DNA of 64,000 bases from a virus: positions 1 to 64,000 of IMG/VR virus record IMGVR_UViG_3300007770_000007, one strand, 5' to 3'. How positions within the stretch are numbered: the stretch's first letter is position 1; each line of letters starts with the position of its first letter. The translations under genes were made by a program, and so were the position numbers. Below the pieces are notes generated by a model. It was given only the letters and a program-made list of their open reading frames with translations. It was not told the origin of the DNA and ran no database searches. Positions 16,145-48,371 of the stretch are shown here, piece by piece.

Positions 16145-16459
16145 ATGCCGAAGTCAAAACCTTCTCACCGCCGCGTGGCTATGGCGAAGCGGCTGGCGCG
16201 AAGATGGATCAAGGCCAACGTGCGCCCCGAGTACCGGATCACCGTGTACATGGGTCCCAAGGGTCTTCGCAATCTTCCGGGACTCCTCCGTTCTTTCCGT
16301 GATGGCAAGATCAAGGTTGGATCTGTAGACCCTGTTCGCGATCTCGGAGTCAAAGCCGGGTTTGATCATGTTGAACTTTGGTCAGCTAACCGTGAAGGGC
16401 TTGTCGAGTTGGACGAGTGGCTTCAGGCGGTGGGCTGTGAAACAACTGGCGTTTGGTAG
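16145..16459 (+). CDS. Hypothetical late protein with basic N-terminal RRVA/KRLARRW tag
   Basis: GGAGG RBS; motif shared with other head-region proteins. Confidence 0.75.
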   Translation: MPKSKPSHRRVAMAKRLARRWIKANVRPEYRITVYMGPKGLRNLPGLLRSFRDGKIKVGSVDPVRDLGVKAGFDHVELWSANREGLVELDEWLQAVGCETTGVW

Positions 16460-16467
16460 GGGGGATC

Positions 16468-16896
16468 ATGGCTGCCGCATTGGTTCTTTCGGAGTTTAGT
16501 TACACGTCTGGGTCTGCTTCGGACCAGTACCTATTCACGGTCGTTTCCGACTCCCAAGGCAACCTTTCAGTGCGCGACATCCAGAATGCTTACGGCATGG
16601 TGGTAAGTCCGTACTCCCGTATCCCCAAATCCGTTGAAGACGACATTCATTCCGCAATCTCACAGGTGGAGGCGCTAATGGCTGCTACATCCGCAGTGAA
16701 CGGCACTCTCACGTTCACTGATTCGCACGAAGAAACCTTCACGTTTGTAGAGGCCATGACGGACGCGCACTACCGCGTCGTGCTTTCCAGTGACGCCTTT
16801 GTTCCGTTGCGGATTAGTGCCCAGACGACCACAACTTTTACTGTCCAAGCCGGTGCCGACTTTTCAGGCACTGTGGGCTTCGACGTGTTCGTGTGA
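16468..16896 (+). CDS. Putative virion structural protein (beta-rich)
   Basis: C-terminal module TFTF...D..YRVV similar to the C-terminus of the next protein. Confidence 0.6.
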   Translation: MAAALVLSEFSYTSGSASDQYLFTVVSDSQGNLSVRDIQNAYGMVVSPYSRIPKSVEDDIHSAISQVEALMAATSAVNGTLTFTDSHEETFTFVEAMTDAHYRVVLSSDAFVPLRISAQTTTTFTVQAGADFSGTVGFDVFV

Positions 16897-16904
16897 GGTA
16901 GAAG

Positions 16905-18476
16905 ATGGCTCAACCCCCTTGGCTTGTAGATGTTCTCCAGATTGAACCTGGGTCTGGAGACACCATCACCATTGACCGTGACTCCACTGACGGAGCCATG
17001 CAGTTTGTCGATGCGGTGGTCACGTCTGGTGTCCTGCTCCCGAATCTTGTTGGAATCCGTAACATCACGGGAGTCTTCGTCGTGGGCCGTGCCGGTGACG
17101 GCGCTGCTTATACAACGGTCCAGTCAGCGTTGGATGCTATCCCTGCCTCTTCCACTGCTTTGGTGCCCTCCCTCGTCCTGGTGATGCCGGGGGTCTACAC
17201 GGAAGATTTGACCCTTACGCGGGACGGCGTTTACATCGTCGGTCTTGGCGGGGCCAAGCTGGTGAATCTTACAGGGACCCACACCCTGACCATCAAGGCT
17301 GAATCAACCTCGACCCCGCAGAACGTGCTGCTCAAGGGCTTGGAGATTGAGAACACCCATGCGGGAGATGCCTGCGTCTATGTTCTCGGGGCTGATACTT
17401 TCGCCTCTGGGACTGTCGATGTAGACAACGCACCGCTTACGGCAGGAGACACCATCACTGTGGGAGGCGTGGTTCTCACAGGAGTTTCTGGAACCCGGAC
17501 CTCCGGTTCCGATGATTTCTCGGTCAACGGCGCTACCACTGACATCATCGCTGCCGAGATTGCTGAAGCGGTCATGGATAGCGCGAACAGCTTCACTGAT
17601 GTTGTGACCGCGACCTCTGCTCTGAACGTGGTGACATTCACCGCTGTAACGGCAGGCGTTACGGGCAACGCGATCACTTTGGCGGTATCCGTAGCAGTGC
17701 CGTTGGACTTGGTTCCCTCTGGCGCAACCCTGGCGGGAGGCGGTTCCTCCGGGAACCTTGTGGCAAACGGTGCTTTGACCATTGAGGATTGTGTCCTGGT
17801 TGCTTCAGGAGCGGGGTGCTTCCAGGTCAACGCAGATACCGCGAACCATATTCGAGTGCGCGGTGGAACCTTCCGAGGTTCGGCTGCTACGTCCGTGTTT
17901 CAGGCATCCAATACGGCCCAGGTTTTGTTGGAAGGTGTCGAGTGGACAAATGATTTCCAACTCGCTTACGACAACACCCTGGATCAACCCAACGACACGA
18001 CCTCCGAGTATCAGATTTTGAACTGTGGCCGTATCCATGACCTCTCTTGCAATCTGGTTGGTCTGGGTTCCCTCACTATTTCCAACTGCCCCGACATCAG
18101 CGTGCTGGCCCAGGATGGTGACCAAACCTTGGCTCTCAACAACTGTGTGGTGGGCGGGGCTACAACTCTTGGGACTACTACAGCAGCTACGTTCCGCAAT
18201 ACGGAACGAGGAACCCTGGCGATTTCTGGGGGGACCCCTACCCTCGCAGAGTCCCGGATCATTGGATCCCAGGCGTTTGTTGCCTCGGCTTCCGAGACAA
18301 TCACTTTCGACATCCCCCAGCCTGACGCGCTCTACACCGTTGTTTCAGAACAGCCAGGGGGAGGCGTCGTGGGGGTTCAGAACAAACTTGCTGCATCATT
18401 TGATTTGGCCGAGGTAGCAGGCCCCGCGACACCGATAACCGCGACCGTCAACTACGTCGTGCTTCGAGATATTTAG
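16905..18476 (+). CDS. Fibre/spike protein with pectin-lyase-like beta-helix
   Basis: YTTVQSALDAI...VMPGVYTEDL beta-helix cap motif; G/T/A-rich. Confidence 0.7.
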   Translation: MAQPPWLVDVLQIEPGSGDTITIDRDSTDGAMQFVDAVVTSGVLLPNLVGIRNITGVFVVGRAGDGAAYTTVQSALDAIPASSTALVPSLVLVMPGVYTEDLTLTRDGVYIVGLGGAKLVNLTGTHTLTIKAESTSTPQNVLLKGLEIENTHAGDACVYVLGADTFASGTVDVDNAPLTAGDTITVGGVVLTGVSGTRTSGSDDFSVNGATTDIIAAEIAEAVMDSANSFTDVVTATSALNVVTFTAVTAGVTGNAITLAVSVAVPLDLVPSGATLAGGGSSGNLVANGALTIEDCVLVASGAGCFQVNADTANHIRVRGGTFRGSAATSVFQASNTAQVLLEGVEWTNDFQLAYDNTLDQPNDTTSEYQILNCGRIHDLSCNLVGLGSLTISNCPDISVLAQDGDQTLALNNCVVGGATTLGTTTAATFRNTERGTLAISGGTPTLAESRIIGSQAFVASASETITFDIPQPDALYTVVSEQPGGGVVGVQNKLAASFDLAEVAGPATPITATVNYVVLRDI

Positions 18477-19533: not shown

Positions 19534-20790
19534 GTGCCCATGCGCCCTGACCCAGCACGCATCGCGAAAGCCCATACCCGCAAGCAGCGGCTTGGTGCGT
19601 CTGCTGACGGCCAGAAGACGGCTTCCATGTCCCGCACTGCTGGTGAGGTTCGCTTCATCAAGGACCGTGGCGGTGACAAGAACGAGTGGGGTTGGGGAAG
19701 CCCTGGTCCCAGCGAGCGCCAAATCACGTCCGACTTCGTGTTTGATCCCAAGTACCTGAAGCCCCTGGCAACGACGATGCGCTCTGCGCTTATGGCTCTG
19801 GGCCATGTTTCGTCTGCTCACGACCGCTTTCTCAAGATCAAGAGCCGCGACGTTAGCCCTGACGGCAGCCTTGGCGGTAAGGGGTACATCCAGAAAGTTT
19901 CCGAGATGCGTCGGCAGTTGATGAACTGTTCCGAGGCCCTGTCTGCTTTCACCGACACCATCTATGACGAGATGGCAGCCCCTCACTGGGATCCTGCCGA
20001 GGACACTCTTGATCCGCGTGATCGGGATGAGGTTCGGGAGATCGTTGAGGAAGCCGAAGAAATCCGAGAGGACCCCACCGGCTGGGCCGACGAGGAAGAG
20101 GAAGACGAGTTCGGCAAGACCGCTGGTACTTTGTCCTATCGGGGGGACACCCCGCTCGATAAAGCGTATGCGATGACGGATCTTCTCATTGAGCTTGGAA
20201 AAGACCTCCCCACCGGATCTTCCCGAAGCCGGGAGTTCAAAGCAGTCAAGACTGCCCTCCGAAGCCTGGAGGGGTTTGTGAAGGGCATTGGTTCGGACAC
20301 TCCAAGGCCACGCGCAGCCCAGACGGTTCGCCGCAAGACGGCTGCATGGGCAGGCATCGACTACATGCGCGGAGATGACCGCTGGACTCTTGGCAAGGCG
20401 GTTGAGAGCCGTCGTGTTCGAGTCCCTTCTGGTTACGAGTTGGTTTCAGAGCCGGGAAAGGTCGTGCTTTTCAACTGGGGCGTCTTGGACGAGGGGGCCA
20501 CCGCAGAGTTTCGATTCATGCCCGATGGCACGAACATTCAGTTCATTATCGACGGGTATAACGACAAGCGTTCGCCCGGTTTGGTTCGGCACAGGTGGGT
20601 CGGCAACCCTGTCGATGACGCGGTCCTTATTGAAAAGCATATCAAGAAGTACATGCCTGCACTTGTGAAAGCAGTCTCGGACGACGAGGAGGACCTTCTT
20701 CGAGAAATCGAGAGGCGTCAGCGCATGGCAGGAATCCCCGGAAGCACCGCCCGTGTGCTTGCACGGTTTATGGAGGTGAACGGTGAGTAG
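19534..20790 (+). CDS. Modular putative head protein with PDPARIA tag and several KTA/RTA junctions
   Basis: AGGAG RBS; QKTAS, SRTAG, GKTAG, RKTAA; C-terminal TARVLARF. Confidence 0.75.
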   Translation: MPMRPDPARIAKAHTRKQRLGASADGQKTASMSRTAGEVRFIKDRGGDKNEWGWGSPGPSERQITSDFVFDPKYLKPLATTMRSALMALGHVSSAHDRFLKIKSRDVSPDGSLGGKGYIQKVSEMRRQLMNCSEALSAFTDTIYDEMAAPHWDPAEDTLDPRDRDEVREIVEEAEEIREDPTGWADEEEEDEFGKTAGTLSYRGDTPLDKAYAMTDLLIELGKDLPTGSSRSREFKAVKTALRSLEGFVKGIGSDTPRPRAAQTVRRKTAAWAGIDYMRGDDRWTLGKAVESRRVRVPSGYELVSEPGKVVLFNWGVLDEGATAEFRFMPDGTNIQFIIDGYNDKRSPGLVRHRWVGNPVDDAVLIEKHIKKYMPALVKAVSDDEEDLLREIERRQRMAGIPGSTARVLARFMEVNGE

Positions 20791-22945
20791 CGACAAGCCC
20801 CTCGATGTTTTGGGGGAGAGTCACCTTCCGGCTGACCTCCTCACCCCTACCCTTGGCTCCAACTACGGTATGCCTGGGTTTGAGGACATGCACTACAACC
20901 AAGGCGTCCTTGAAGGCGTCCTGGATCCCGAGTTGATGCCTCCTCCCGCGTTGCCTACTGGGCTGGAGCGCGTTGCTGAATCAGACATGGGCGTCCAGGA
21001 GATGATGAAGGAGGCCGAGTTGGCCGACCTGTCTTGGCTTGCCGATGCAGAACAAGACCCCGAGCGTCTCCCCCAGAACCCGGTTGATTTGGGAATCCCG
21101 GAACTTGAGGAAGCCTGGGGCGTTGATCGCCGCACTAACGGTATCCAGGTGTTCTCTACGGATCTTGCCCACGCCAAGGCGTCGGCCCCTGACACGCGCC
21201 TCCCCATGAATGAACGCGACTTGTCGGACATTCTGGTTACGGCCATGCGGCGCTCTGCGGCTGGTGAGGACATCAGCCTGATCATCGAACAGTCCCGAAT
21301 CGCCGCTGGCGTGGATGCAGATCGAATCGAGAAGGGGCTTTCCATTATCCGCAGCGAGCATGGTCTTGCAGGAAAGGTCTTTGTTCGTGCCGCCGCATAC
21401 CCCTCTTATGAAAAGGGGAAGTACCGCGACGAGATTCTGAAGGCCGCCAAGGGAGCCGAGTACATCCTTGTCTCGGGCCAGGACTTTGGTTCTACTCATA
21501 TCCAGAACGGTCGCTGCACTGTAACGGGCAAGAAGGCCGTCCTTGAGGTTCCTTGGAGCAAGGCCCTGTCTCACTACAAGCCTTTGTTGCTTGCTACGGG
21601 GCATCGGGTAGCTACGGACGTTCCAGCAAAGGATGCCCTCCGGGCCGCCTTTCTTGCACCGACCTCGTTGCCGGTTGCACGCGGTGAGCGTCTTCCTCGT
21701 TACAAGGCTGTATGCGATACGGTTTCTTCTGAAGAGGCTGCGGCAAGCCTGAAGGCCGCCGACAACACTCCCACGGAAGTCCAGGTGACAGACGCCGTGT
21801 TGAATCGACGGCTTCAACTCTGGAAGCAGAGCAATATGATTGACTCTGACTTGGTTGAGCAGATTCAGGCTGCCGATCTGACGCCGAACCAGAAGTTGGC
21901 CCGTGCTCTCGATGCGGTGAACGCTCGTCGTAACGGGACCTCTGGTTTCACGGGTGCCCCTAACACCGCCGTTGAGGCGGCCCAGAAGCGCCAGCATCTC
22001 CGTCTTGTCCGTAAGGACCACGCCAAAGAGGCTTCTGAAGCACGGCTCCGAGAAATCGTCGCTTTCCGAAACTCCGATGATCTGGACCAGCGCATCGCAA
22101 AGGTCATTGAGAAGATCGAGCAGGGCGCACGCGGTTCTTACCTCAAGTCCTTTATCAACAAGGTGATTCCGCAGAAGTTTGCTGCTGAAGCAGTGCGTCG
22201 GCTGCGTCCAACATTGGAAAAGACCGGTGCCCTCGAAGAAGAGAGCAAGGCCGCTTCCTATGATGGTCATGTTTACGAACGTGCCCCCGAGGTGCGGGAG
22301 GCTGTGGAGCTTTCTGATAAGGACGCGGCGCTCGCCAAGGCTGCTTCTGATGGTGATGTTTCTGTTTCGGAGATCAAGGGTGTCCTCAAGTGGGCCTCTC
22401 GTCATATGTCCCAAGGGTCTGCCGGAAGTGAGCTTACTGAACTGCTTCGTCATCGTTTCTCGAACCGGATCCTCAAGTCTGCTTCGGGATTGATTCAGAG
22501 TATTCGCGACACCCACGAGGGCGCTGCTGGATTTCTCTACGTTGACTCCGAAGCCTACATGGCTCCCACAGGGGTGAAAGGTTGCGAGACAGGTGCCCTT
22601 CGTCATCGATCCAACCAGCTACCTGCTGTCCTGGCCAGTTCCCGGTGCCAAGGGTGTACCCGAGTTTGCACACTTTCCTGCGGCACGCGGAAGTGCAGCA
22701 CCTACAACAAGGTGCTTCTGGAGCGTTCGGACCTTCCCGGAGACATCAAGTCCATCAAGAAGGCCAACATCACCGGGGCAGACCAGACGGATGCGGAAGG
22801 TATTGCTTCCCTGTTCGGCGCTACCTATGACCCGGATGAATACAACCTTCGCAGTGCGGATTTCGAGGACGAGGTAGAACTGGCCCCGCTCCCCGAAAAC
22901 GAGAAGATTGGTGAAATCGTCTTGGGTGGCTTCCTGTGGGAGTGA
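20783..22945 (+). CDS. Large hypothetical head-region protein with Cys-rich C-terminal region
   Basis: 720-aa ORF, coupled; C-terminal CQGC..VC..C..KC cluster; RVA/KAAS/KSAS motifs. Confidence 0.75.
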   Translation: MSSDKPLDVLGESHLPADLLTPTLGSNYGMPGFEDMHYNQGVLEGVLDPELMPPPALPTGLERVAESDMGVQEMMKEAELADLSWLADAEQDPERLPQNPVDLGIPELEEAWGVDRRTNGIQVFSTDLAHAKASAPDTRLPMNERDLSDILVTAMRRSAAGEDISLIIEQSRIAAGVDADRIEKGLSIIRSEHGLAGKVFVRAAAYPSYEKGKYRDEILKAAKGAEYILVSGQDFGSTHIQNGRCTVTGKKAVLEVPWSKALSHYKPLLLATGHRVATDVPAKDALRAAFLAPTSLPVARGERLPRYKAVCDTVSSEEAAASLKAADNTPTEVQVTDAVLNRRLQLWKQSNMIDSDLVEQIQAADLTPNQKLARALDAVNARRNGTSGFTGAPNTAVEAAQKRQHLRLVRKDHAKEASEARLREIVAFRNSDDLDQRIAKVIEKIEQGARGSYLKSFINKVIPQKFAAEAVRRLRPTLEKTGALEEESKAASYDGHVYERAPEVREAVELSDKDAALAKAASDGDVSVSEIKGVLKWASRHMSQGSAGSELTELLRHRFSNRILKSASGLIQSIRDTHEGAAGFLYVDSEAYMAPTGVKGCETGALRHRSNQLPAVLASSRCQGCTRVCTLSCGTRKCSTYNKVLLERSDLPGDIKSIKKANITGADQTDAEGIASLFGATYDPDEYNLRSADFEDEVELAPLPENEKIGEIVLGGFLWE

Positions 22946-22948
22946 CCT

Positions 22949-25900
22949 GTGGCTCCTCGTCACCCAAATCCTGAAGCGGTAGCGACACTGAAGCAGGCCG
23001 AGATGTCCACAGAGGCATCGGTGGCCTTGATGAAGTGGCTCTCCCGAGTCACCCGAAAGGCCGGGGTAGCGCAGCACGTCTACGTCGTCGGCGGTGCCGT
23101 CAGGAACTTCCTGCTTGAGAAGCCCATCAAGGACATAGACATGGTGGTGGATTCTCTCGCACTGCGCGGGAATCGTGACGCCGCTTGGGTGGCGCAGCAG
23201 GTAGCCCGTGCAATCCCCGCCCCTACCAAGGTGTGGACCGATAGCCTGATGGTTTCTCATATCACTGTGGAGGGTCCTTGGAGCCTTGACGGCCATCAGA
23301 TGGAGGGGGAGGAGATCGAGATCGTCAACGCTCGCTTGGAGGAGTACGCGGTTGACCCCCAGACAGGTGAGTACACCGGACACAAGCCGGAACGGGTCGA
23401 ACCCACCACGATGGAGATCGACATTTCTCGCCGCGAGTTCACGTTCAATACATTGATGTGGACGCTGCTGTCGCTCGCCAATGGCCCTGACAAGGCCGAA
23501 ATCATTGACCTCACGGGGTGTGGTCTAAAGGATCTAAAAAACCGCGAGATGCGCTGCCCTGGCGACCCCGACGAGACATTCGCGCAGGACCCCACCCGGA
23601 TCATCCGCACCATCAAGTTCGCCTTCAAGTACGGCATGAAGCTGCCGCCCGACGTGAAGGCAGCAGCTATCCGGCAGGCCAAGGGACTCAAACGCATCCC
23701 TTCCAAGACCCAGAGCATTCTTCAGAAGATTGTGTTGGATAACCCCCAATACAAGAAAGCCCTTGATGTCATGGATCGCCTTGGCGTGAACGCAGTCATC
23801 AAGGAGATAATGCTGGAGAACAAGCCCTTTCGGTCCTTTATGGAGAGCCACGCCAGAAAGAAGGGTGTTGCTTACATGCTTGATCTGATGGACGTGGGCA
23901 TCCCTGTAGGCGCTCCAATCTCTTTCCTTGATGCAGCGCAGCAGAAGCGTTTTCGGGAAGTAACGTCTGTTATGGATCGTGACGCCGCTTTGGATTTTTT
24001 GGGTATGTTGCGCCAGACGGGCAGTGCCTTGGGAGGGGCTACCCTGGCTTTGGCGCAAGAGCACGGCTATCGACAAAACGAAATGCGGGATTTTTCACCC
24101 GTCTTGAATAGGGTTGTGCGGGACCTTCTCCTCGAAGATCCTTCTTTGGCGGCTTCTTCATCGAGGCTCGTTCAGCGGGTTCGTCGGGAACTGCCTCGTC
24201 AACTGCCCCGACGGGCAAGCTCTGCTTTGGTTTACGGCACCCCTTCGGATGCCGACCGCGCAACTATGGAAGCCCCCACTCCCATATTTCCCCTCGCGTT
24301 CGAGGATTTTCACCTGATCCCGCCCCCCGACCAGGAGGAAACCCTTGAGGAGCTTCAAGACCTACGCGAACTCGCTGAAGAACAGCGCCCGGAAGCTGAA
24401 GAGTTCATCAAGGAGTCTGATGGGGAGATTCTCCATCTCTTTGATCGTCTGTGGCGCGATCATGGTGTCCGAGTCGATAAGAGGTGGATGCGAGAGATGG
24501 TCAAACAGGCGAAAACCCACGTCGCCAAGCTGAAGTGGCACTTCAATCGCCCACGTCCATATCAGGTAGGGGACGCTATCGGACAGCCCTTCGAGGCACT
24601 TGCTTCAGAAACGGCCCACTCCCCTTCGTACCCAAGCGGTCATGCCATCCAAGCGTTCCTCTTGGGAGAGGCATCAAGCCGCCTGGACCCCGAACATGCG
24701 GCTGAATACTTTGATTTGGTTGACCAGATTGCGTGGGGTCGGGCGCAAGCAGGCTACCACTGGCCCAGTGACATCCTCTACGGCGTTGAAGTTGCTGACC
24801 ATATGGCTGACTTCATGGATGTTCCCGAGGCTTGGAGTCCTCGCGTGGCGCGGATCATGGAGAGGAGGGCTTCACACGCCCTACAGAGGCATCGCTGGGC
24901 CAAGACGTTCACCGTCAACAAGGGCGATCCTATCTGGTACGGGAAGTATAAGAACAAGCGGGGGATCATTGATGGGTTCAGCACCAACGAGAAGGGTGAC
25001 GTGATCATCACCGTCGAACAGGTGCCTAATCCAACTGGCCGCAAGCAGCCCAAAGAGTTGAAGCTGTTCCGGGTGCGCCCCCGAGAGGTGGAGGAGGGCA
25101 AGGAGGCAAGCCCCCGTCGCGTCGTAGCCAAGTACAAGAGCAAGAAAGAGGTGCCCAAAGCAGACGGCAGCGGGACCACCACTGTTTACGAGTACGGCCC
25201 TCGGCAGGTAGCCCAACGCCATAAAGAAAAGGCCAAGAGATTGGAGGGGTTGAAGGCATCCCTTTCTGATTTGAGGGGTCAGGTTTCGGAGGACATGGTG
25301 TCAGACGACCCGGAGACGAGGCTTACGGCTTTGGCGGTGGCGTTGCTCGACAAGACTTATGAGCGCGTGGGTAACGAGAAATCCGCTGATGATCGTGGCC
25401 ATTTTGGAATCACGACCTTGCGGGTCAGCCACCTGGACCTGAAGGACAAGAAAGCCACCTTTGAGTACGTTGGCAAGAGCGGGGTGAAGCAGAAGAAGGT
25501 TGTGACGGACCCTCAAATCATTGAGGTTCTCAAAGCGGCAGTGGACGGAAAAGAGGGTGACGAGCGCATTCTGTGCGACGGCGATGATTGTCAGATTCGA
25601 GCGCGGCACGTCAACGGTTACCTCAAGCCGTTTGACATCACGGCCAAGGATCTTCGGGGGCTACATGCCAATGAGGAGATGCGTGTTCGGTTGAAGGATG
25701 TTCGCAAGAAGGGCGAGAGCCTTCCCCGAGGTCGAAAAGACCGAGACAAGATCCTAAAGGCAGAGTTCAAGGAAGCATTGGAGGCGGTTGCAGAGGCGGT
25801 GGGGCATCAGGCATCCACGCTCCGGTCCCAGTACCTCGTGCCAGGGCTGGAGGACTTCTACATGAAGGACGGGACTGTTATTGATGATTTGGCCAAGGCT

Positions 25901-28090
25901 GCCTCTCTGGGTCGGGATGCAGGCTTTCGTTCGTGGCTCATGGGGATCGTCAGTAAGTCCACGGTGGTCAAGGCGATCTTTGAGTGGGGTGAGCAAAAGC
26001 TGGACGGCCCAGCGGATCTTCCAGGAGGGTTGGTTCCCGAGGGCTACATCTGGAAGATGGGCGGTAGTTGGTACGCCAGCATTGGAGATGGTTTCCGGGT
26101 CCAGAAATACAGGAGCGAGCGCGAAGCTACCCGAGGGGTTCGGTTCTCGCGTGTGGCTCATACGCTTCTCCTGAAGCAAGCCACGAAGTCTGAAGCAGAG
26201 CGTGAAGAGGAAGAGGCCCAGCGACTTGTGCGTAAGTCCCCCAAGAAAAAGCCGCCTCGGGTGGACCTGGAACGCCGTCATGTCGAGGATTCGGATTCCG
26301 AAAGGGATCCCGATAAAGAGCAAGATCGGAAGGATACGTCCCACAACTTCAAGGACATCGCCGCCTCGATGGCCGCTCGGCGTGTAGCTTTTCGGTACAG
26401 GAAGGCCGAGGAGTTTACGGAGCAAGAGTGGAAGACGTATAAATCCAAGCACCCAGGGGCCAATAAGGACGACCACACGATCCGGTCAATAGGTGAGGAC
26501 GACGAGGATGGGGGTGCGTCCGAGGATACCTGGGAAGAACTTTCCTCTGATGAGCAAATGGATCTCTTGGCAGAGGGCGCAGGGACCGAGTTTGGGAAGA
26601 TTCAGGACGAATACCCCAACACCACGATCACTGAAGAAGACGTCCAGGACATGATGATGGAGCAAGCTGCGGAAGGGGTGGACCCTTTCAGCCCAGCAGC
26701 GGCCAAGGAACGCAAGGACCAGATCAAGAGCCAAGCGGCGATGGATTCGGCGTCCAACAACCTCGTCCTCCTTACCCAGTCTTTTGGAGGTGACGGGTCC
26801 GAGAAGGTTGAATCAGCCCTTCAAGGCTTGAAGGGTGATGACCGGGCAACATTCCTTGAATCATATGAGAAGGCGCAGGAAACCGCCAAGGCGCGGGACT
26901 CTGCGGTTCGAGGCGACCCTGCCGCCCGTAAAGAGTTGCTCACCCTTGCCGAAAGCCTTGATGCGGTTCTGGCCTCCATCAAGGACGGAAACCCAGGCGT
27001 GATGGGAGAGGTGCTGGCGCTATTCGAGTATGCCTCGAAGGTTCTGTTCAATCCTTCCCTCATAGACCCCGCCAACCCAGTCTCCGATAGCCAGGGTGTC
27101 GTGACGGGCGACGACCTCGCGAAGTCGAAAAAGCGCAGCGCAACTCATGCTGCGAATGCCTTTGAACGCTTCAAGGAGGCAAGCCCCGAGGAACGCGCCC
27201 ATTCCCGTGAAGCACTCGCCCAGCAGTTGGAGGGTCTTCCTGACGGGTCTGCCGCGAAGGTGGAGCTTCAAGGTGTTGTTTCAGGACTGCTTGCCGCGTC
27301 AGCTTTGCATGACGGGGAAGAGGCTACTGGCGTCGGACCTACGATGCAGCTTCTCGTCAAAGCACTCGATAAGGCTGGGGCAGCAGGTCCCGATGGGGCC
27401 TTGTTTGCACCGGTTGGGGGCGACCTTTCCACTCCAGAGGCGCAGGAGGGCATCCGGGCCGCCCTCACTGACGTGCTTGACGAAGACTGGGGAAGTTTGG
27501 TCGAGGAGGATGACCCCATCTTCCCTATCGCGGAGTTGTTGAGTGATGAATCCGCTGATTTGGGGATGGAGGATAAGCAGTTTCTTCGCACAATCATTGC
27601 TGATTATTTGACGGATGAAATCACGGTGGTGGAAGAGGCGACTCGCGAGGATCATCAAAAGGATGAGCCTACTACGGGCGACGTGAAGCAGAGCTTGAAG
27701 GAGCGCCGGAAGAAGGACAAGTCTCGGATGACGTCTGCCCTTCGGGATGCGAAAGGTCAGTTCTTGGACCAATCCGCTATTGACGAGGCGCAGGGTTCTG
27801 GGGCGAAGCAGGATGACGAAGACGCCGATACTTCTGCCGAGTCCGAGGGTGCAGGGTCGGAAGACACAGAAGAAAAGAAGGAGGAGGGTGCAGAGCGGAA
27901 GAAGGGATTCTTCGCCGCCCTTCTTGATGCCATCTTCCCTGATTCGAGAAAGGATAAATGGCAAGCCATCGTTGAAGGCGACGAGCCTGAATCTTCGACG
28001 GAAAAGACAGCCCTTGATCGTTATGATTTGCAGCCGTGGGACACTTCCAAACTTCCAACGGGAAACTCTGTCCCGTTAGATGCGCGGTAA
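22949..28090 (+). CDS. 1713-aa polyprotein: CCA/poly(A)-polymerase-type nucleotidyltransferase + PAP2 phosphatase + SH3-like domain + DNA topoisomerase IB + unknown helical domains
   Basis: VVGGAVRN..DID, RREFTFN, DPTRIIR; KWHFNRPRP, SYPSGH, R...GYHWPSD; RVGNE, GKSG, AKDLR, GH..TLRSQY. Confidence 0.88.
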   Translation: MAPRHPNPEAVATLKQAEMSTEASVALMKWLSRVTRKAGVAQHVYVVGGAVRNFLLEKPIKDIDMVVDSLALRGNRDAAWVAQQVARAIPAPTKVWTDSLMVSHITVEGPWSLDGHQMEGEEIEIVNARLEEYAVDPQTGEYTGHKPERVEPTTMEIDISRREFTFNTLMWTLLSLANGPDKAEIIDLTGCGLKDLKNREMRCPGDPDETFAQDPTRIIRTIKFAFKYGMKLPPDVKAAAIRQAKGLKRIPSKTQSILQKIVLDNPQYKKALDVMDRLGVNAVIKEIMLENKPFRSFMESHARKKGVAYMLDLMDVGIPVGAPISFLDAAQQKRFREVTSVMDRDAALDFLGMLRQTGSALGGATLALAQEHGYRQNEMRDFSPVLNRVVRDLLLEDPSLAASSSRLVQRVRRELPRQLPRRASSALVYGTPSDADRATMEAPTPIFPLAFEDFHLIPPPDQEETLEELQDLRELAEEQRPEAEEFIKESDGEILHLFDRLWRDHGVRVDKRWMREMVKQAKTHVAKLKWHFNRPRPYQVGDAIGQPFEALASETAHSPSYPSGHAIQAFLLGEASSRLDPEHAAEYFDLVDQIAWGRAQAGYHWPSDILYGVEVADHMADFMDVPEAWSPRVARIMERRASHALQRHRWAKTFTVNKGDPIWYGKYKNKRGIIDGFSTNEKGDVIITVEQVPNPTGRKQPKELKLFRVRPREVEEGKEASPRRVVAKYKSKKEVPKADGSGTTTVYEYGPRQVAQRHKEKAKRLEGLKASLSDLRGQVSEDMVSDDPETRLTALAVALLDKTYERVGNEKSADDRGHFGITTLRVSHLDLKDKKATFEYVGKSGVKQKKVVTDPQIIEVLKAAVDGKEGDERILCDGDDCQIRARHVNGYLKPFDITAKDLRGLHANEEMRVRLKDVRKKGESLPRGRKDRDKILKAEFKEALEAVAEAVGHQASTLRSQYLVPGLEDFYMKDGTVIDDLAKAASLGRDAGFRSWLMGIVSKSTVVKAIFEWGEQKLDGPADLPGGLVPEGYIWKMGGSWYASIGDGFRVQKYRSEREATRGVRFSRVAHTLLLKQATKSEAEREEEEAQRLVRKSPKKKPPRVDLERRHVEDSDSERDPDKEQDRKDTSHNFKDIAASMAARRVAFRYRKAEEFTEQEWKTYKSKHPGANKDDHTIRSIGEDDEDGGASEDTWEELSSDEQMDLLAEGAGTEFGKIQDEYPNTTITEEDVQDMMMEQAAEGVDPFSPAAAKERKDQIKSQAAMDSASNNLVLLTQSFGGDGSEKVESALQGLKGDDRATFLESYEKAQETAKARDSAVRGDPAARKELLTLAESLDAVLASIKDGNPGVMGEVLALFEYASKVLFNPSLIDPANPVSDSQGVVTGDDLAKSKKRSATHAANAFERFKEASPEERAHSREALAQQLEGLPDGSAAKVELQGVVSGLLAASALHDGEEATGVGPTMQLLVKALDKAGAAGPDGALFAPVGGDLSTPEAQEGIRAALTDVLDEDWGSLVEEDDPIFPIAELLSDESADLGMEDKQFLRTIIADYLTDEITVVEEATREDHQKDEPTTGDVKQSLKERRKKDKSRMTSALRDAKGQFLDQSAIDEAQGSGAKQDDEDADTSAESEGAGSEDTEEKKEEGAERKKGFFAALLDAIFPDSRKDKWQAIVEGDEPESSTEKTALDRYDLQPWDTSKLPTGNSVPLDAR

Positions 28091-28099
28091 CGTTCCTAT
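28085..28099 (+). promoter_or_regulatory. Putative late promoter CGGTA-N7-TAT
   Basis: Consensus match overlapping the polyprotein stop codon. Confidence 0.65.
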
Positions 28100-28142
28100 A
28101 CCTTCACCCTATGAGCGAGACTTGTGCTCGTGGAATCCCTGT

Positions 28143-28178
28143 CCTTACAGGACCCCCTTACAGGACCCCCTTACTGGA
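28143..28178 (+). repeat. 13-bp tandem repeat CCTTACAGGACCC x2 plus partial third copy
   Basis: Directly visible; third copy supplies the GGAG RBS. Confidence 0.85.
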
Positions 28179-28186
28179 GAATCGTC

Positions 28187-29248
28187 ATGGCCGACAACCT
28201 TACCCGGAGCGGGGCACGGGCCTTCACCGAGACCCTTGACCGTATCGCTACCGCCGTTCAACACAATGCAGCCCTTTTGGGCCTCCCCTCGAACATTGCC
28301 ACCGACTTCGCCTTCCGCTGCGATTTGGTTAGCGATGCGGTGGAGAAGCAAGCGGCGGCCAACTTCCCTTTGAAGCAAGCTGACTTCAACGCCGATGAGA
28401 TTGGCGAAGAGGTTCCGGGTCCTTTGGTTGATGATCCTCCCAATGCACAGATCGATGAACACTTCACCCAAGAGAAGTTCCACGAGCTTACCGAGATGGC
28501 AGACGCCGAAGAAGCCGCCGACAAGCTGGCTTCTCTGATGGAAGAGGCAGACCGCGTGATGGAAGCCGCGATGCCCACCATCAACGTCCAAGGATTCCGG
28601 GGCTTTACGGATCAGGTTCGCCGTTTAGACGAACTCTCCACCGAAATCGAGATGCTTGAAGCAGAGCTTGAGGCCGCCACCAGCGGCCTTTTGTCGCGCA
28701 AGAAGGATCTCGACAAGGAGATGAAGGCCGCCGTTGAGGTTCTCAAGAAAGACTACAAGGAGAATCTTTCGGCACAGGGCAACGTCATCATCGAGCGCAA
28801 GACCGCTCTGGTGGACGCCCAGGCAAGGTTGGCAGTCGTTGCTCGCAGGCGCACTCCGCAGAAGGTCCGGGATGAACTCCTGGCCGCTCTTGCCGAGGAG
28901 TACGGTGAGAGTATTCGTCAGCGCCTTCCTGAACTGGAGAACGCACTGCGCGAAGAAAAGAAGACTATGGCTGTCGCCTTCAAGGGATTCGAGCTTGAGA
29001 TGCGTACCGCGTCCGTTGCTGACAAGAACGCTGGTGTCCTCGACAAGCTGGTTCGCTTCCGCGAATGGCTCGTTGGTGGCCTGAAGCGCATTGTCGGTAT
29101 GGCAGAGCAGGCCACTCGTCTTTTCAAGGGCGTGGGCCGCAAGATGGAGAAGGACACCTCCATGTTCCTGCGGGAACTCGACCAGTTCGAGTCCGAGATG
29201 GGCAAGGCTGCCACCGAAGTCCACGGTTTCGATTTCTTTTCCGAGTAG
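28187..29248 (+). CDS. Coiled-coil putative head/internal protein
   Basis: GGAG RBS before ATG 28187; KQA, KLAS, RTAS, KNAG, KAAT motifs. Confidence 0.75.
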   Translation: MADNLTRSGARAFTETLDRIATAVQHNAALLGLPSNIATDFAFRCDLVSDAVEKQAAANFPLKQADFNADEIGEEVPGPLVDDPPNAQIDEHFTQEKFHELTEMADAEEAADKLASLMEEADRVMEAAMPTINVQGFRGFTDQVRRLDELSTEIEMLEAELEAATSGLLSRKKDLDKEMKAAVEVLKKDYKENLSAQGNVIIERKTALVDAQARLAVVARRRTPQKVRDELLAALAEEYGESIRQRLPELENALREEKKTMAVAFKGFELEMRTASVADKNAGVLDKLVRFREWLVGGLKRIVGMAEQATRLFKGVGRKMEKDTSMFLRELDQFESEMGKAATEVHGFDFFSE

Positions 29249-29257
29249 GAGTCTCCG

Positions 29258-29824
29258 TTGAAGACCGGCACTAACAACGTCAACTGGCAAGAGAGAGCCA
29301 CAGAGTTCTCTGTCGGTGATCTCGTGGGAATCTTCGGAGCCTACGAGTCTCAAGCAGGCCGCGTAACAGCGGTCTGGCCTGCTATTGGCATGATTGATGT
29401 TGAAATGCCTAACGGCAACAAGCGGTTCCCTGCGGAAGACCTCCAGCGTTACGACGGCAACGGTAACGCAGCCCCGCCTACCACAGACTCTGCTCCGGGA
29501 GGCCAGCCTACGGTTTCGGTTCCAGGAGGCCCTTACGGTAAGAGCGCGTCTGCTGAAAGAGTTGCTGAAGCAGCCGTGCGTAGAGCTTTGTACTGGGCAT
29601 CCACGGATCGTAAGTACAAGTTGACCCGCTCTGAAAAAGACGGTGGGGCTATCGGTTGTCCCAAGTGCAAGGAAGGCTCCCTCAAGCGAGCAATCTACAA
29701 GCGTAGGGACGGTGCCAGCGAGCGCCTGATGGGATGTCCTGGGTGCATGTTTCTCATCAAGGAACTCGATATTGTGAACTTCCTTGGGGATAACGCTGAA
29801 CTTGAAGTCGGAGAGGAGGGTTAG
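29258..29824 (+). CDS. SH3-like plus zinc-ribbon hypothetical protein
   Basis: FSVGDLV..GRVTAVW; CPKC...CPGC; KSASAERVA linker. Confidence 0.75.
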   Translation: MKTGTNNVNWQERATEFSVGDLVGIFGAYESQAGRVTAVWPAIGMIDVEMPNGNKRFPAEDLQRYDGNGNAAPPTTDSAPGGQPTVSVPGGPYGKSASAERVAEAAVRRALYWASTDRKYKLTRSEKDGGAIGCPKCKEGSLKRAIYKRRDGASERLMGCPGCMFLIKELDIVNFLGDNAELEVGEEG

Positions 29825-29826
29825 AC

Positions 29827-34347: not shown

Positions 34348-34369
34348 CATTTAGCCGGTGACGGCTTCT

Positions 34370-34405: not shown

Positions 34406-34470
34406 GCGTTTGGGGGGTTCCCGTTCTGACTGGCTGCCGTAAAGAGTTCAAGAGGAGGGATGGGACACCC

Positions 34471-34610
34471 AGACTGATTCGACAAAGGTGGAGGGCGATC
34501 AAGACCCGTTGACCACTGCGCTACCCACAAGACCGAGCAGCGGCGAAACCTTGTCAGTCTAAACGCCATACGAGTACCGAGAGGTCCGGGACGAAAGTCT
34601 CGGGCCTCGT
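34471..34610 (+). ncRNA. Candidate structured non-coding RNA
   Basis: No plausible ORF; nested stems AGACT/AGTCT, GACAA/TTGTC, ACGAG/CTCGT enclosing GAGA and GAAA tetraloop hairpins. Confidence 0.4.
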
Positions 34611-34624
34611 TTGCTTTGGGGTGC

Positions 34625-34639
34625 CGGTAGAGTGTCGAT
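34625..34639 (+). promoter_or_regulatory. Putative late promoter CGGTA-N7-GAT
   Basis: Consensus match, intergenic. Confidence 0.65.
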
Positions 34640-34672
34640 ACTCAATGGGAAGTAACCCTTCTGGAGACAGTC

Positions 34673-35278
34673 ATGTCTGATACCCCCGCCCGTCACCGCT
34701 TGATTCGCCTCGCCTCTACGTTGCCCAAGGGCAGCACGGAGCGTGGAGAGATCCTCTCCATTCTTGCCGCTGACGCTGACCACCTGAAGAAGCACCAGTT
34801 CGACAGCGAGAACAACCCCAATCCCAAGGGGAATGACAAGGACGGTGACGGCGAGACTAACGAGCCGAGTCCCGTGAAGGACAAGAAGGCTGCCCCTTGT
34901 GATGACGCCCCCGCTCCCTTCAAAGAGCAGTGCTTGAAGAAGGTTGAAGAAGGGAAGAAGAATGAGGACAAGAAGGAAGCCGGTGGTGGCTGCGACTCTC
35001 CCAAACTTCCCGACGCCCTGAAGGCACAGTGCAAGGAGAAGGAGAAGGAAGGCGACAAAGAGGCCAAGGAAAAGTACCCCTGGGATGATTGTATTGCCGA
35101 TCAGATGAAGGAATACGGCAGCAAGGAAGTTGCTGAAAAGGTTTGCGGTAAGATCCGGGCCGAGAGCCAGGGCCTCAAGTCCGCTGCTGATTTCCGCAGA
35201 AGCCTGATTCGGATGGCTGCCGAGATGCCCAAGGGCGATGCTTCCCGTAAGAAGCTCCTCACACTTCTCAAGTCCTAA
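34673..35278 (+). CDS. Charged modular protein with terminal LIR(L/M)A repeats and Cys-pair mini-modules; putative internal head protein
   Basis: LIRLASTLPKG..R.EIL at the N-terminus and LIRMAAEMPKG..RKKLL at the C-terminus; KKAA/KKEA/DKEA/LKSA junctions. Confidence 0.75.
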   Translation: MSDTPARHRLIRLASTLPKGSTERGEILSILAADADHLKKHQFDSENNPNPKGNDKDGDGETNEPSPVKDKKAAPCDDAPAPFKEQCLKKVEEGKKNEDKKEAGGGCDSPKLPDALKAQCKEKEKEGDKEAKEKYPWDDCIADQMKEYGSKEVAEKVCGKIRAESQGLKSAADFRRSLIRMAAEMPKGDASRKKLLTLLKS

Positions 35279-35907
35279 TGATTCAGCCATCGCCTTCAAG
35301 AGTAGCTGCCCGTTATGCGGCATCCCCTCCCACGCTTCGGCAAGTGAAAGCCCTTTTGAGGCGCACGGGAATCGAAGGTGAGTTGTCAGGGCGTGGGCGC
35401 GATTGGTCCGTGGAGTTGCCTGATAGCCGCACTTCTGACGCCTTCCAGAAAGCCTACCAAAAGGCTTTTCGTGCTGGGGTTGGGGGTTACCGTACTGGCT
35501 ACGGTGCCTGGGTTATGCGCCCAGGCTATGGCGCAGACCCCCATGACTTCAACGACCCTGCTTCCCGGCACCACTACGCCGCGCTCCCAGAGGAGCCTGT
35601 GGTCGGAGACATTCTCTATTCCAACTGGGGATATGACCAGACCAACATCGACTACTACCAGATCATCAAGGCGACCCCAAAGCAGGTCGTCATAAAGCAG
35701 CTTCTCAAGAAGGTTGTGAGCACGGGCCGCACTGATGAGAAGGTCATCCCCCTCAAGGGGAAGTTCGATCCAAGAGGGAAGGCTCTCCGTAGAAAGTGGC
35801 GTCCCGGCTACAGCGACGGCATTGCTGTGAGCATCAACTCCTACTCCAGCGCGTATAGTTGGGATGGTCGTCCTAAAAGCCAAACAATGGCCGGGTTCGG
35901 CCACTGA
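35278..35907 (+). CDS. Two-module protein with N-terminal PSPSRVAARY tag
   Basis: Coupled start; second module GDILYSNWGYDQTNIDYYQ. Confidence 0.75.
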   Translation: MIQPSPSRVAARYAASPPTLRQVKALLRRTGIEGELSGRGRDWSVELPDSRTSDAFQKAYQKAFRAGVGGYRTGYGAWVMRPGYGADPHDFNDPASRHHYAALPEEPVVGDILYSNWGYDQTNIDYYQIIKATPKQVVIKQLLKKVVSTGRTDEKVIPLKGKFDPRGKALRRKWRPGYSDGIAVSINSYSSAYSWDGRPKSQTMAGFGH

Positions 35908-46492: not shown

Positions 46493-46496
46493 GCTG

Positions 46497-46511
46497 CGGT
46501 ACATTCCCGAT
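46497..46511 (+). promoter_or_regulatory. Putative late promoter CGGTA-N7-GAT
   Basis: Consensus match, intergenic. Confidence 0.65.
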
Positions 46512-46562
46512 AAAGCCCGGATGGTTGAGTGCCGTCTGGGCTTTATTGCTTCTGGAGGCTTT

Positions 46563-48371
46563 GTGCCGCGTCCATCCCCTGCTCGTGTAGCTGCCCGATA
46601 TGCGGATTTGAACCCGCCGTTGGGCTATCCGGGCGGCCCGTGCCACGTCATGCAGCGCATCCGAGATGAGGTGAGGAACCCCAAACTCCAGGAGAAGCTC
46701 GTTGATTCAGTGGAAGACGGCGACAAGCTGTCTAACCCTGAAGCAGCGGCCATCTATGATCTGGAAGTGGACCGTGGGGCTGGCAGGTTCAAGAAACTCC
46801 GCATCACTCCCCATGCCCAGTACCGGATGGACCAACGGGGAATCATCGTCAACGAACTCCGCATCGCCCTCAAGTCTTTCCAGAAAGCATGGAACGATGA
46901 CAAGTCTCGTCAGGGGTATCGCTGGCGTAACTGGGAAGAGGACATGGCAAGAGGCCAGCCGATTCGTTGGGAAGATCCCCAAATCAAGCTGGCGGTGGTG
47001 TTTACCGCCAACCGTGATGTCGCTACGCTTGTTACCGCTTATTGGGAAGGGCAGCCTGACCCTCGTCCAGAGGATGAGGACTCCTGTTCGGTTCGGGTTG
47101 GCTTGAAGATTGCCCCTACGCCGGGGGTTCAGACTTATGTCACCGAAGACTCTGCGAAGGGGATTCCTCCCAGTAACGATAGCAGGGAGCCTGATTCAGC
47201 AGCCCCTCTTCCTGGAAGCGCCGTTCCTGGAGGGGCTGGTCGAGAAATCGGCAAGTTCGAGTACAACACTCCCGATTCGAGTTCGGACATAAAGCCTCGC
47301 ACGTTGTCGGAGCCGGGAGAGCAGCGAGGCCATCCCACTAATGTCCTCGACAACTACATCACCCGACGCACCTTTACCTCTGCTCTTGTAGAGGCGTGGG
47401 AGGCAGGGCCTCCGGGTCCGAGGCGGCAACATCGCCAGAAGCCTGCGGAGCGCAGGCGGCAGAACCGGGAGGAGTACCGCCCCAACCGCATGATAAAGAG
47501 GCGCATGGCGCTGAAGCGGTATCACCAGTTCTGTAAGCGAAACCGTCAGTGCAAGATGAAAAGAGAGTTGTATAGGAAACACCCGCAGCGGTACAAGCGC
47601 AGAGCGCCGCGCTCGGTGAAGAAACTCCCCAGGCTTCTCAAAGAGGGCGGGGACATCATCCTTTACGATCAGTGGAACCCTGCCAACAACGAAATCAAAC
47701 AGCCCGGTCCCGACGTGAACTATCGCGCAGAGGGTCCGACGACTTACGAGTTCAGGCCGGATGAGCGAGAGGGAGTTCCTCCAGGACACGCTCCTCCAAG
47801 TAACCAGACCGAAGATGTTCCTCCTGCTTCAAGCAGGGTCATTCCCGATGAGATGAAGGAAAACCTCCGGGACAACCTGACTTATGTGCAGGCGGCACCC
47901 AACTTGAGAGTGGCAGCTACCATAGGTCAAGTCCTCTCGAAGTGTGATTCCACGATCTTGAATCGCGCCAAAGCAGTCCGAATCAGCCCTTACCGGTTCA
48001 ATCCGGCGAAGGGTTTTTGGAGCTTCAAGGCTGCCGGGAGCCAGGGCACCTACATTGTGCGTGTCAAGGGAGTCCGTCGAGGCAACGTGAAGAACTTGGA
48101 CAAAGCCCAGATCAAAGTGTCTTGCTCTTGTCCTTTCTTTCGGTGGCAAGGACCAGAACACTGGGCCAAGCAAGGACAGTATCTTTACGGTCGTCCTGTA
48201 GGTACTGCCTCCAATCCCAAGGTCATGGACCCGAAAGGCCACCACGGAGCGTGCAAGCATGTAGTTGCTGCTTTGAGCAAGGCGAGGGGCTGGCGGTTCA
48301 GTTCTGAAGGCACCCTCTGGGACCAAGATGCAGTGGTTATCTTGGACGAGGATGCCCTGTTGAGTGGGTAA
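46563..48371 (+). CDS. Modular protein: PSPARVAARY tag, DUF4258-like domain, Arg-rich segment, C-terminal SWIM zinc finger
   Basis: GGAGG RBS before GTG 46563; ITPHAQYRMDQRGI..LVTAYW; VSCSCP...ACKHVVA. Confidence 0.75.
   Translation: MPRPSPARVAARYADLNPPLGYPGGPCHVMQRIRDEVRNPKLQEKLVDSVEDGDKLSNPEAAAIYDLEVDRGAGRFKKLRITPHAQYRMDQRGIIVNELRIALKSFQKAWNDDKSRQGYRWRNWEEDMARGQPIRWEDPQIKLAVVFTANRDVATLVTAYWEGQPDPRPEDEDSCSVRVGLKIAPTPGVQTYVTEDSAKGIPPSNDSREPDSAAPLPGSAVPGGAGREIGKFEYNTPDSSSDIKPRTLSEPGEQRGHPTNVLDNYITRRTFTSALVEAWEAGPPGPRRQHRQKPAERRRQNREEYRPNRMIKRRMALKRYHQFCKRNRQCKMKRELYRKHPQRYKRRAPRSVKKLPRLLKEGGDIILYDQWNPANNEIKQPGPDVNYRAEGPTTYEFRPDEREGVPPGHAPPSNQTEDVPPASSRVIPDEMKENLRDNLTYVQAAPNLRVAATIGQVLSKCDSTILNRAKAVRISPYRFNPAKGFWSFKAAGSQGTYIVRVKGVRRGNVKNLDKAQIKVSCSCPFFRWQGPEHWAKQGQYLYGRPVGTASNPKVMDPKGHHGACKHVVAALSKARGWRFSSEGTLWDQDAVVILDEDALLSG

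Follow-up and report, generated by a model that had tools for sequence, protein, structure and literature searches.

How does a huge phage mature its head, and how might it bring enzymes into that head? This question is raised by a head gene module on the IMG/VR contig IMGVR_UViG_3300007770_000007 (77,335 bp), of which we analyzed the first 64 kb (GC 0.57), referred to as the window (W) in the following. A first-pass annotation of the window had pointed out that many of its late proteins carry the short motif (K/R)-x-A followed by a small or acidic residue, and that several unrelated proteins share a basic peptide resembling R-V-A-x-R-Y. It had proposed that this peptide directs interchangeable cargo domains into the prohead, where a protease encoded from position 29827 frees them. 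We find the motif concentrated in head proteins throughout a lineage of huge phages, and very probably it is the cut rule of this protease, for which we obtained an assemblin-fold model.

To judge from its genes, the window represents part of the genome of a huge phage in the phage G / LR745208 lineage. Its capsid protein shows 88% identity to the counterpart in LR745208, an uncultured phage of 485 kb, 49% to that of Tunturiibacter phage Tunturi 5 and 40% to that of Bacillus phage G. Around the capsid protein gene, all four have a common gene order of unknown head proteins, a giant multi-domain protein, the 28124 and 29258 families, the protease, an acidic scaffold, a decoration protein and the capsid protein; proteins are named here by the start coordinate of their open reading frame (ORF) in the window. 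Genes were called with a codon model trained on the window, and the same procedure was reused for the relatives, that is, 19 IMG/VR loci retrieved with the protease as query (42–100% identity, GC 0.37–0.64). For LR745208, the whole genome was assembled from ten stretches and 564 genes were called. Coordinates labeled L001 refer to the head module of LR745208, and L002 is phage G. The longest ORF overcalls the start at 28124 and 46521, where ribosome-binding sites favor ATG 28187 and GTG 46563.

The probable cleavage motif and its protease

The head set of the window comprises 11 head-module proteins (19534 to 35278; 5,272 residues). They contain 77 copies of (K/R)-x-A-[SAGTDE], called sites in the following, where 36 ± 5.5 are expected (z 7.1–7.7 in whole-protein and 20-residue block shuffles), whereas the non-head proteins of the window contain 60 copies, with 57 expected in the same shuffles. 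The first-pass annotation had suggested this count against a composition-shuffled null, and its observations proved accurate: the strings it quoted are all present in the genes it named (ten tag-like peptides, six scaffold and four protease tetrapeptides), and the 'at least a dozen' copies it saw in the scaffold are 13. Six control motifs (the reversed motif, two shifted ones, and variants with an acidic P3, with Gly/Ser/Leu at P1 or with a non-small P1') stayed within ±1.6 standard deviations. When all 1,600 gapped residue pairs are compared in the window head set, K-x-A is the strongest, and among 8,000 a-x-b-c patterns in 92 head proteins from 11 non-redundant loci, K-x-A-S comes out on top (86 vs 19.4, z 15.9), with R-x-A-S at 54 vs 17.3 and K-x-A-A at 83 vs 35. 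P1' is preferentially Ser (4.5-fold) or Ala (2.7-fold), P3 is Lys rather than Arg, and P5 leans toward Leu/Met. Since the codons at these sites are diverse (all four Ala codons, both Ser codon families, six Arg codons), the signal lies at the protein level. Our literature searches returned no earlier description of the motif, and the accessible part of the phage G particle-proteomics paper does not discuss cleavage motifs in its text.

Taken alone, the relatives give the same picture, with 387 sites vs 209.5 in head proteins (z 11.6) and 94 vs 91.9 in other proteins; each of ten loci is positive (z 2.2–6.2) over the GC range of 0.37–0.64. Each of the nine non-redundant loci has an enriched scaffold homologue (z 2.6–7.0), and homologues of 28124, 20783 and the protease are often enriched, while tail and other genes are not. 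No enrichment is seen in the relatives' decoration protein, portal, TerL or tail proteins, and the decoration protein has zero sites in every lineage. Enriched proteins in the cultivated phages are gp328 (20 vs 6.5) and gp332 (12 vs 3.9) of Tunturi 5, and gp4, gp7 (13 vs 3.6), the protease gp19 and gp56 of phage G. In LR745208, the head module has 63 sites vs 37.5 and the remaining 529 proteins have 468 vs 520; genome-wide, no protein scores a higher z than the 20783 homologue and the scaffold. The slight under-representation outside the head module could be avoidance or noise, and a few mildly site-rich proteins are found at 35–50 kb of the LR745208 record.

Several sites occupy positions where maturation cuts would be expected. 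The capsid protein has a single one, K24-L-A26|A27 (nt 33544–33555), which predicts a 26-residue propeptide; it is kept in every relative and in Tunturi 5. In phage G, N-terminal sequencing has shown that the capsid protein gp27 is shortened from 282 to 255 residues (Hua et al., 2017; PMC5646251, Table 1). As 27 residues are lost, gp27 is cut after Ala27, and in a BLASTP alignment this bond coincides exactly with A26|A27 of the window. The scaffold has a conserved N-terminal site, K12-Q-A|S15, found ~14 residues from the N-terminus in relatives, and a conserved C-terminal site, K416-S-A|G419, which precedes a conserved 22-residue tail that a cut would detach. Being head-specific, lineage-wide, conserved at propeptide positions and in register with the one mapped cut, the motif behaves as the head-protease motif that the first-pass annotation took it to be.

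The protease itself was likewise identified correctly. Protein 29827 matches phrog_18299 ('head maturation protease') at 1.2e-14 and has no match in Pfam, NCBIfam or a profile search of PDB sequences. A profile search of 1.84 billion proteins yielded 2,077 representatives, and an alignment of 70 of these gave a model of residues 45–285 with a predicted local distance difference test (pLDDT) score of 91.1 (48 with a nine-sequence alignment), in which an assemblin-fold core spans approximately residues 45–275. In VIA-align, the top 36 entries are all herpesvirus proteases or T4 gp21, and unrelated folds begin below Z 7; the matches include the proteases of varicella-zoster virus (VZV; Z 11.2, root-mean-square deviation 2.4, 112 residues aligned) and pseudorabies virus (PRV; Z 10.5) and T4 gp21 (Z 10.2, 126/165 aligned). 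The best Foldseek matches are gp21 and the protease of Kaposi's sarcoma-associated herpesvirus, with a probability of 0.98. His57, His129, Ser63, Ser180 and Ser246 are invariant in the 70 sequences, and the order protease–scaffold–decoration–capsid is kept in the window and all relatives. The protease is predicted to cut itself at R26-T-A|S29, at K292-A-A|S295, just past the core, and at R460-R-A|S463. Across representatives of the family (384 sites vs 162 expected), the first of these recurs near residue 28 as W-x-x-[IV]-R-x-A|S in 55 of 68 sequences with a mutual identity of at most 50%, and a site within 60 residues past the core end is present in 49 of 59. The C-terminal helix holds a conserved V-R-V-A-I-R-V-G-Y-L-L motif. 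In L021, the protease gene (L021:9968-12877) has a ~470-residue insertion near the invariant Cys204 with weak Hint and LAGLIDADG matches, likely an intein; dozens of representatives reach 850–1,850 residues and match in separate pieces, so that inteins or fusions appear to be common in the family.

No protein on the contig is richer in sites than 20783, which is likely an internal head protein that is degraded, to judge by its sites and those of its homologues (11 vs 3.8 in L001, 13 vs 4.9 in L005). We rejected its identification as the portal, as portal and TerL are separate genes in L001; the ESM Atlas returned nothing for it. In LR745208, TerL and portal separate the 20783 homologue from the topoisomerase protein, which is not so in the window, and the head module also holds two TnpB/IS605 OrfB genes and a GIY-YIG/NUMOD3 homing endonuclease (L001:4136-5437, 7605-8888 (-) and 14314-15174). 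Beyond the window, a 386-residue protein of no known family (contig 75306-76466; L023:11306-12466) has 7 sites vs 3.3, and K/R-x-A-[SA] at 5 vs 1.6, and may be a further head-internal substrate.

Probable joints of the giant polyprotein

Protein 22949 has Pfam matches to PolyA_pol (2.7e-14), PAP2 (1e-8) and Topoisom_I (4.2e-29) within one ORF, and the catalytic motifs expected of these enzymes are intact by eye. In the Pfam scan, it lacks the hallmark InPase, ART and MPTase domains and has no peptidase domain. Its predicted P1 residues are 17, 38, 78, 239, 346, 423, 641, 720 and 813 in the first part and 836, 985, 991, 1060, 1078, 1153, 1398 and 1411 in the remainder. What is informative about them is their placement, not their number (for the modules, see Table 1).

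In each of the three genomes with the nucleotidyltransferase (NTase) module (W, L005 and L014), conserved sites flank it on either side; in L014, where it is C-terminal, the protein stops ~10 residues past the site. At the C-terminal edge of the topoisomerase, a K-x-A site is found in seven of eight lineages, with R-V-A|E substituted in L010, and the stand-alone topoisomerase of L022 begins at most two residues from the K-E-A|S cut of the window. Module 5 is an insertion that L005 and perhaps L013 also have, and that L001, L015 and L022 lack; its ends coincide exactly with two sites, relatives without it join both flanks directly at the site, and several relatives' proteins end just past module 6. 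The modules are separate or differently fused in L001, L010, L013, L014, L015, L021 and L022, in fusions that involve HAD_SAK_1, 2H phosphoesterase and, in L010, InPase.

The first-pass annotation had expected domain boundaries and breakpoints in homologues to fall on the motif. For module edges and the ends of relatives' proteins this is the case, but it does not extend to an overall enrichment of sites in the polyprotein. Likewise, 24 of 34 ends of high-scoring segment pairs (HSPs) lie within 10 residues of a site (~19% expected), a figure that shrinks when distinct breakpoints are counted, as weighed below. From the sequences, it appears probable that the polyprotein is processed at its joints.

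Other cargo-type proteins of the relatives (L010:2-8091, L014:5208-8975, L001:11561-13087 and LR745208 347195-348688) mix HAD_SAK_1, 2H (2'-5' RNA ligase superfamily, with a weak Acb1 match), CCA-type NTase, InPase and topoisomerase IB domains. By its domains, this mix looks like an RNA-repair or counter-defence theme.

Two terminal peptides on unrelated proteins

A six-frame search of the 77-kb contig for [SD]-P-x-R-[VI]-A gives only three matches, all at the extreme N-terminus of a gene product (19534, 35278 and 46563). The R-V-A-x-R-Y tag occupies residues 4–14 of both 35278 and 46563; the common register follows from the ribosome-binding site (GGAGG) that supports the GTG 46563 start, and the 35278 start overlaps the stop of the upstream gene (TAATG). 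The tag of 35278 includes two sites, R-V-A|A and R-Y-A|A. Protein 19534 carries a looser form at its N-terminus, with sites at residues 28–31 and 34–37, just ahead of its conserved core, and a tag-like peptide behind an R-M-A|G site in its C-terminal 19-residue tail; homologues in L001, L005 and L022 retain tag-like termini. Of the tags listed by the first-pass annotation, these three N-terminal ones stand, while three others are weak: 16145 is a doubtful member, because its string misses the pattern and the protein has no sites; the string in 29258 is a conserved internal motif of its family; and that ahead of the topoisomerase is the conserved N-terminal edge of this module.

A strict tag regex, fixed from the window alone, finds 8 matches vs 0.27 in the relatives' head proteins, with 0–1 for controls, and beyond the head modules it matches only in the 46563 family. 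Tags are located at N-termini, at C-termini (stand-alone topoisomerases and the 19534 family) and beside junction sites. A looser R-V-A tag occurs 14 times vs 3.7 in the whole LR745208 genome, mostly near N-termini; among its carriers are an ART-PolyVal ADP-ribosyltransferase and a 2H phosphoesterase. Members of the 35278 domain family bear either the R-V-A tag, or the L-I-R-L-A leader described below, or, in distant phages, no leader. The central observation of the first-pass annotation, a tag shared by unrelated proteins, is thus borne out: R-V-A-x-R-Y is found on proteins that are not homologous, and in one family another leader takes its place. When the 40-residue tag region was used in a word search, the orthologue was the sole match, and a complex prediction of the capsid protein with residues 1–40 of 35278 scored 0.00, which is not evidence either way. 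In phage G, gp13 starts with a near-copy of the window tag (K-T-A|A-R-Y-A|A-S) and gp9 has a similar peptide; in the L014 homologue of 46563 (L014:19081-21009), the N-terminal region is duplicated, with a tag-like peptide before each copy.

The second peptide, much clearer than the R-V-A tag, had no place in the first-pass account. It is a leader of ~28 residues whose L-(L/I)-R-L-A core leads into a Pro-x-Gly turn and a Leu-rich helix. In LR745208, it heads nine unrelated proteins scattered over the genome in near-identical form (11 regex matches vs 0.5), with an L-I-R-L-A-H core and an L-L-P-L-L-K-E-A|G end; eight of the nine leaders end in K/R-x-A|G/A, ~28–30 residues from the Met. None of the carriers has a clear Pfam domain. 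In the window, 34673 has a variant (L-I-R-[LM]-A ... P-K-G) at residues 10–31 and again at 178–199, and the leader also resembles the conserved C-terminal helix of the protease.

Table 1. Features of the head module and of tag- and leader-bearing genes; coordinates refer to the window unless another record is named, and site counts are given as observed vs expected
Feature	Coordinates	Strand	Basis or remark
104-aa protein	16145–16459	+	loose tag resemblance only, zero sites
418-aa head-module protein	19534–20790	+	tag-like peptide at residues 5–14
720-aa protein, family unknown	20783–22945	+	16 sites vs 4.8–5.0; most site-rich on contig
1,713-aa polyvalent polyprotein	22949–28090	+	PolyA_pol, PAP2, Topoisom_I domains (Pfam)
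Module 1, class II nucleotidyltransferase (CCA-adding / poly(A) polymerase type), residues 18–423	23000–24217	+	Pfam, alignments
Module 2, PAP2 phosphatase, residues 424–641	24218–24871	+	tag-like end, then R-R-A|S
Module 3, small domain, residues 642–720	24872–25108	+	ends at K-E-A|S
Module 4, topoisomerase IB catalytic core, residues 721–985	25109–25903	+	Pfam, alignments
Module 5, insertion, residues 986–1078	25904–26182	+	between K-A-A|S and K-Q-A|T; tag-like peptide inside
Module 6, conserved post-topoisomerase tail, residues 1079–1153	26183–26407	+	R-V-A-F-R-Y end, then R-K-A|E
Acidic low-complexity C-terminal region, residues 1154–1713	26408–28090	+	sites 1398, 1411
28124-family head-module protein	28187–29248	+	7 sites vs 3.0; likely start ATG 28187 by ribosome-binding site
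188-aa zinc-ribbon protein, conserved beside protease	29258–29824	+	2 sites, internal conserved R-V-A motif
Prohead maturation protease	29827–31239	+	phrog_18299, fold model, gene neighbourhood
Acidic scaffold	31259–32581	+	13 sites vs 5.3
HK97-fold major capsid protein	33475–34347	+	phrog_2522
201-aa protein with second-leader variant at both ends	34673–35278	+	5 sites vs 2.0
209-aa tagged protein	35278–35907	+	C-terminal domain = phrog_37844
602-aa tagged protein outside head module	46563–48371	+	DUF4258-like domain, basic region, SWIM-like zinc finger behind tag
LR745208 leader genes	14562-15269, 30891-31487, 226068-226730, 274678-275832, 351465-352536, 389893-390948, 398171-398575, 431502-433268		
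Further leader-type gene	L013:4556-4894		

Proposed mechanism, alternatives and related systems

Very probably, the 29827 protease cuts behind the Ala of (K/R)-x-A|(S/A, more rarely G/T/D/E), and P5 is often Leu/Met. In this way, it would trim the 26-residue capsid propeptide, process itself near residue 28 and just past its catalytic core, free the conserved 22-residue scaffold tail and shred the remaining scaffold, degrade the 720-residue protein 20783, and separate the polyprotein into nucleotidyltransferase, PAP2 phosphatase, small domain, topoisomerase IB and others. We further infer that portable end-peptides, namely the R-V-A-x-R-(Y/F/H/W) tag and the L-I-R-L-A leader, may bring unrelated proteins into the prohead, where they would be trimmed and from which they would probably exit with the DNA.

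This account as a whole, in which an assemblin-fold protease cuts head proteins at the motif and end-peptides load cargo, is the one we favor on balance. Its parts are not equally firm. Portability, terminal position, an attached cut site and the analogy to T4 and HK97 all suggest that the end-peptides could act as addresses, for which we would give the R-V-A tag a chance just short of even and the L-I-R-L-A leader a higher one. To judge from gene context and cleavage motifs, the cargo may be packaged and injected with the DNA. More tentative is the broader idea of a lineage-wide, programmable payload system, in which two address peptides might load counter-defence and nucleic-acid enzymes, either singly or as shuffled polyproteins whose joints are cut by an Ala|Ser protease. 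It would cover ~2,000 protease representatives, including the cultivable phage G and Tunturi 5, and its payload would comprise topoisomerase IB, an RNA-repair-type kit of NTase, HAD, 2H and PAP2 domains, and ADP-ribosyltransferase.

Several findings weigh against the proposed mechanism. The gp27 cut, the sole experimentally mapped one in the lineage, has Ala instead of Lys/Arg at P3 and Gln at P1', so the cut rule must be looser than our regex, and the candidate scaffold of phage G (gp21, by position) has zero sites. The polyprotein as a whole shows no significant site excess (17 vs 11–12), and some of its sites fall within conserved enzyme domains; this count fits folded enzymes on cleavable linkers, yet it weakens the case. 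Likewise, the HSP ends collapse to ~13 distinct breakpoints, only ~7 of which lie within 10 residues of a site (p ~0.005, a binomial estimate). In an unbiased seed search of protein termini, the tag ranked first but stayed within the null (4 families vs 3–4). Finally, targeting and cleavage context cannot be told apart by sequence alone, because the tag holds the cut motif.

The last point leads to the most serious alternative: the motif may be real, but R-V-A-x-R-Y a favored cleavage or propeptide context, or a protease exosite, rather than an address, so that entry into the prohead would depend on the scaffold, the L-I-R-L-A leader or size-independent trapping. The tag does hold one or two copies of the cut motif, R-[VI]-A on its own is enriched in head proteins (14 vs 4.2), several tags lie 3–4 residues from another site, a single polyprotein has more of them than an address would need, and the clearer leader of the lineage is L-I-R-L-A. 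Many tags, however, have a non-enriched P1' residue (R, H, F or K) and yet retain the downstream R-(Y/F/W); moreover, the tag is found at C-termini as well as N-termini, and within one domain family it stands in for the L-I-R-L-A leader. We therefore consider this alternative unlikely, though it deserves to be taken seriously.

A second alternative is that the multi-enzyme and tagged proteins act in the cytoplasm late in infection, with their head location reflecting operon organization and their junctions either cut by free protease or uncut. It would accommodate the missing overall site excess of the polyprotein, and Tunturi 5 has an ordinary tRNA nucleotidyltransferase elsewhere in its genome. 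Still, it appears improbable to us, given that conserved sites bracket the modules whatever their fusion order, and that InPase, ART-PolyVal, 2H and HAD_SAK, which are typical virion-packaged polyvalent domains (PMC5512222), are found in the same genes or with tags. Besides, prohead proteases of the assemblin fold act within proheads in T4, HK97 and herpesviruses.

That the motif excess is a by-product of composition or structure, a DNA-level signal or the mark of a host protease would agree with the Lys/Ala/Glu-rich makeup of scaffold-like proteins and with a motif picked after the sequence had been read, but we regard it as very improbable, because the excess survives 20-residue local shuffles and reversed and shifted controls, which excludes composition as its cause, is recovered by an unbiased scan, holds over GC 0.37–0.64 and diverse codons, is accompanied by conserved sites within the protease family itself, and has a basic P3 that does not fit signal peptidase I, while the generic [LI]-x-E, whose excess in non-head proteins we had dropped, is only ~1.2-fold enriched in every protein set.

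The proposed cargo system is a variant on the theme of the T4 targeting sequence and of polyvalent proteins. As with T4 gp21 and the targeting sequence of IPI–III and Alt, there is an assemblin-fold protease, a short motif of three positions with many copies in scaffold and internal proteins, an N-terminal leader that is common to unrelated proteins and ends in a cut motif (here by motif only), and a cargo that includes an ADP-ribosyltransferase (here a candidate, in a relative). By contrast, the motif is (K/R)-x-A| instead of (L/I)-x-E|, there are two unrelated leader classes, tags are also found at C-termini and internal junctions, the cargo would include multi-enzyme polyproteins, and the capsid protein is HK97-type with a 26-residue propeptide, all of which is read from sequence here.

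Herpesvirus assemblin (UL26 / VP24) cuts the scaffold R and M sites at (V/L/I)-x-A|S. The fold, the P1 Ala and P1' Ser, a cut just past the protease core that is followed by a scaffold-like C-terminal part, and a cut ~22–25 residues from the scaffold C-terminus that would free a shell-binding tail are alike, whereas here P3 is basic instead of aliphatic, protease and scaffold are separate genes, scaffold sites are far more numerous, and cargo enzymes are predicted to be processed as well. With an identity of only ~10%, the likeness in Ala|Ser specificity may have arisen by convergence.

For polyvalent proteins, packaging into virions and delivery have been predicted (Iyer et al., 2017; PMC5512222). 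In these proteins, which include Dar of phage P1, unrelated enzyme domains are likewise joined in one polypeptide beside head genes and shuffled among relatives, and their hallmark InPase, ART-PolyVal, 2H and HAD_SAK_1 domains are found in our relatives or tagged proteins. The classical ones, however, usually have their own zincin-like peptidase, whereas the window protein has prohead-protease motifs at its joints instead. A term search of PMC5512222 did not find the topoisomerase IB, CCA-type NTase and PAP2 content, with 'topoisomerase' mentioned once. In Tunturi 5, gp321 is a classical polyvalent protein with a SprT-like peptidase domain and zero site excess, and its contrast to the window polyprotein suggests two processing routes for polyvalent proteins.

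The prohead proteases phiKZ gp175 and SPN3US gp245 are comparable in that giant phages remove many propeptides at a short motif that is present in several copies per propeptide. Their motif ends in Glu and the cleavages were mapped by mass spectrometry; they belong to another lineage with a T4-like capsid protein, in which no shared portable tag is defined. Lastly, the C-terminal segment of the HK97 protease gp4 and the cargo-loading peptides of encapsulins are short terminal peptides that bring a protein inside an HK97-fold shell. The likeness is one of layout, in that the C-terminal helix of the protease resembles the second leader here, and we claim no sequence similarity.

For the lineage of the largest cultivated phages, these findings provide a concrete rule of cleavage, from which exact neo-N-termini can be predicted for phage G and Tunturi 5. 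The Ala|Ser core and the predicted scaffold-tail and post-core cuts match assemblin, which bears on a shared ancestry of capsid maturation in phages and herpesviruses. Furthermore, polyvalent proteins become linked to a probable cleavage of standard joints in trans, with the prohead protease as the enzyme, which would explain why enzyme modules are freely fused, split and inserted. A packaged topoisomerase IB and an RNA-repair-like enzyme set would be candidate effectors of the first minute of infection, and, if the leaders are addresses, address and joint together would be simple handles for loading chosen proteins into very large capsids.

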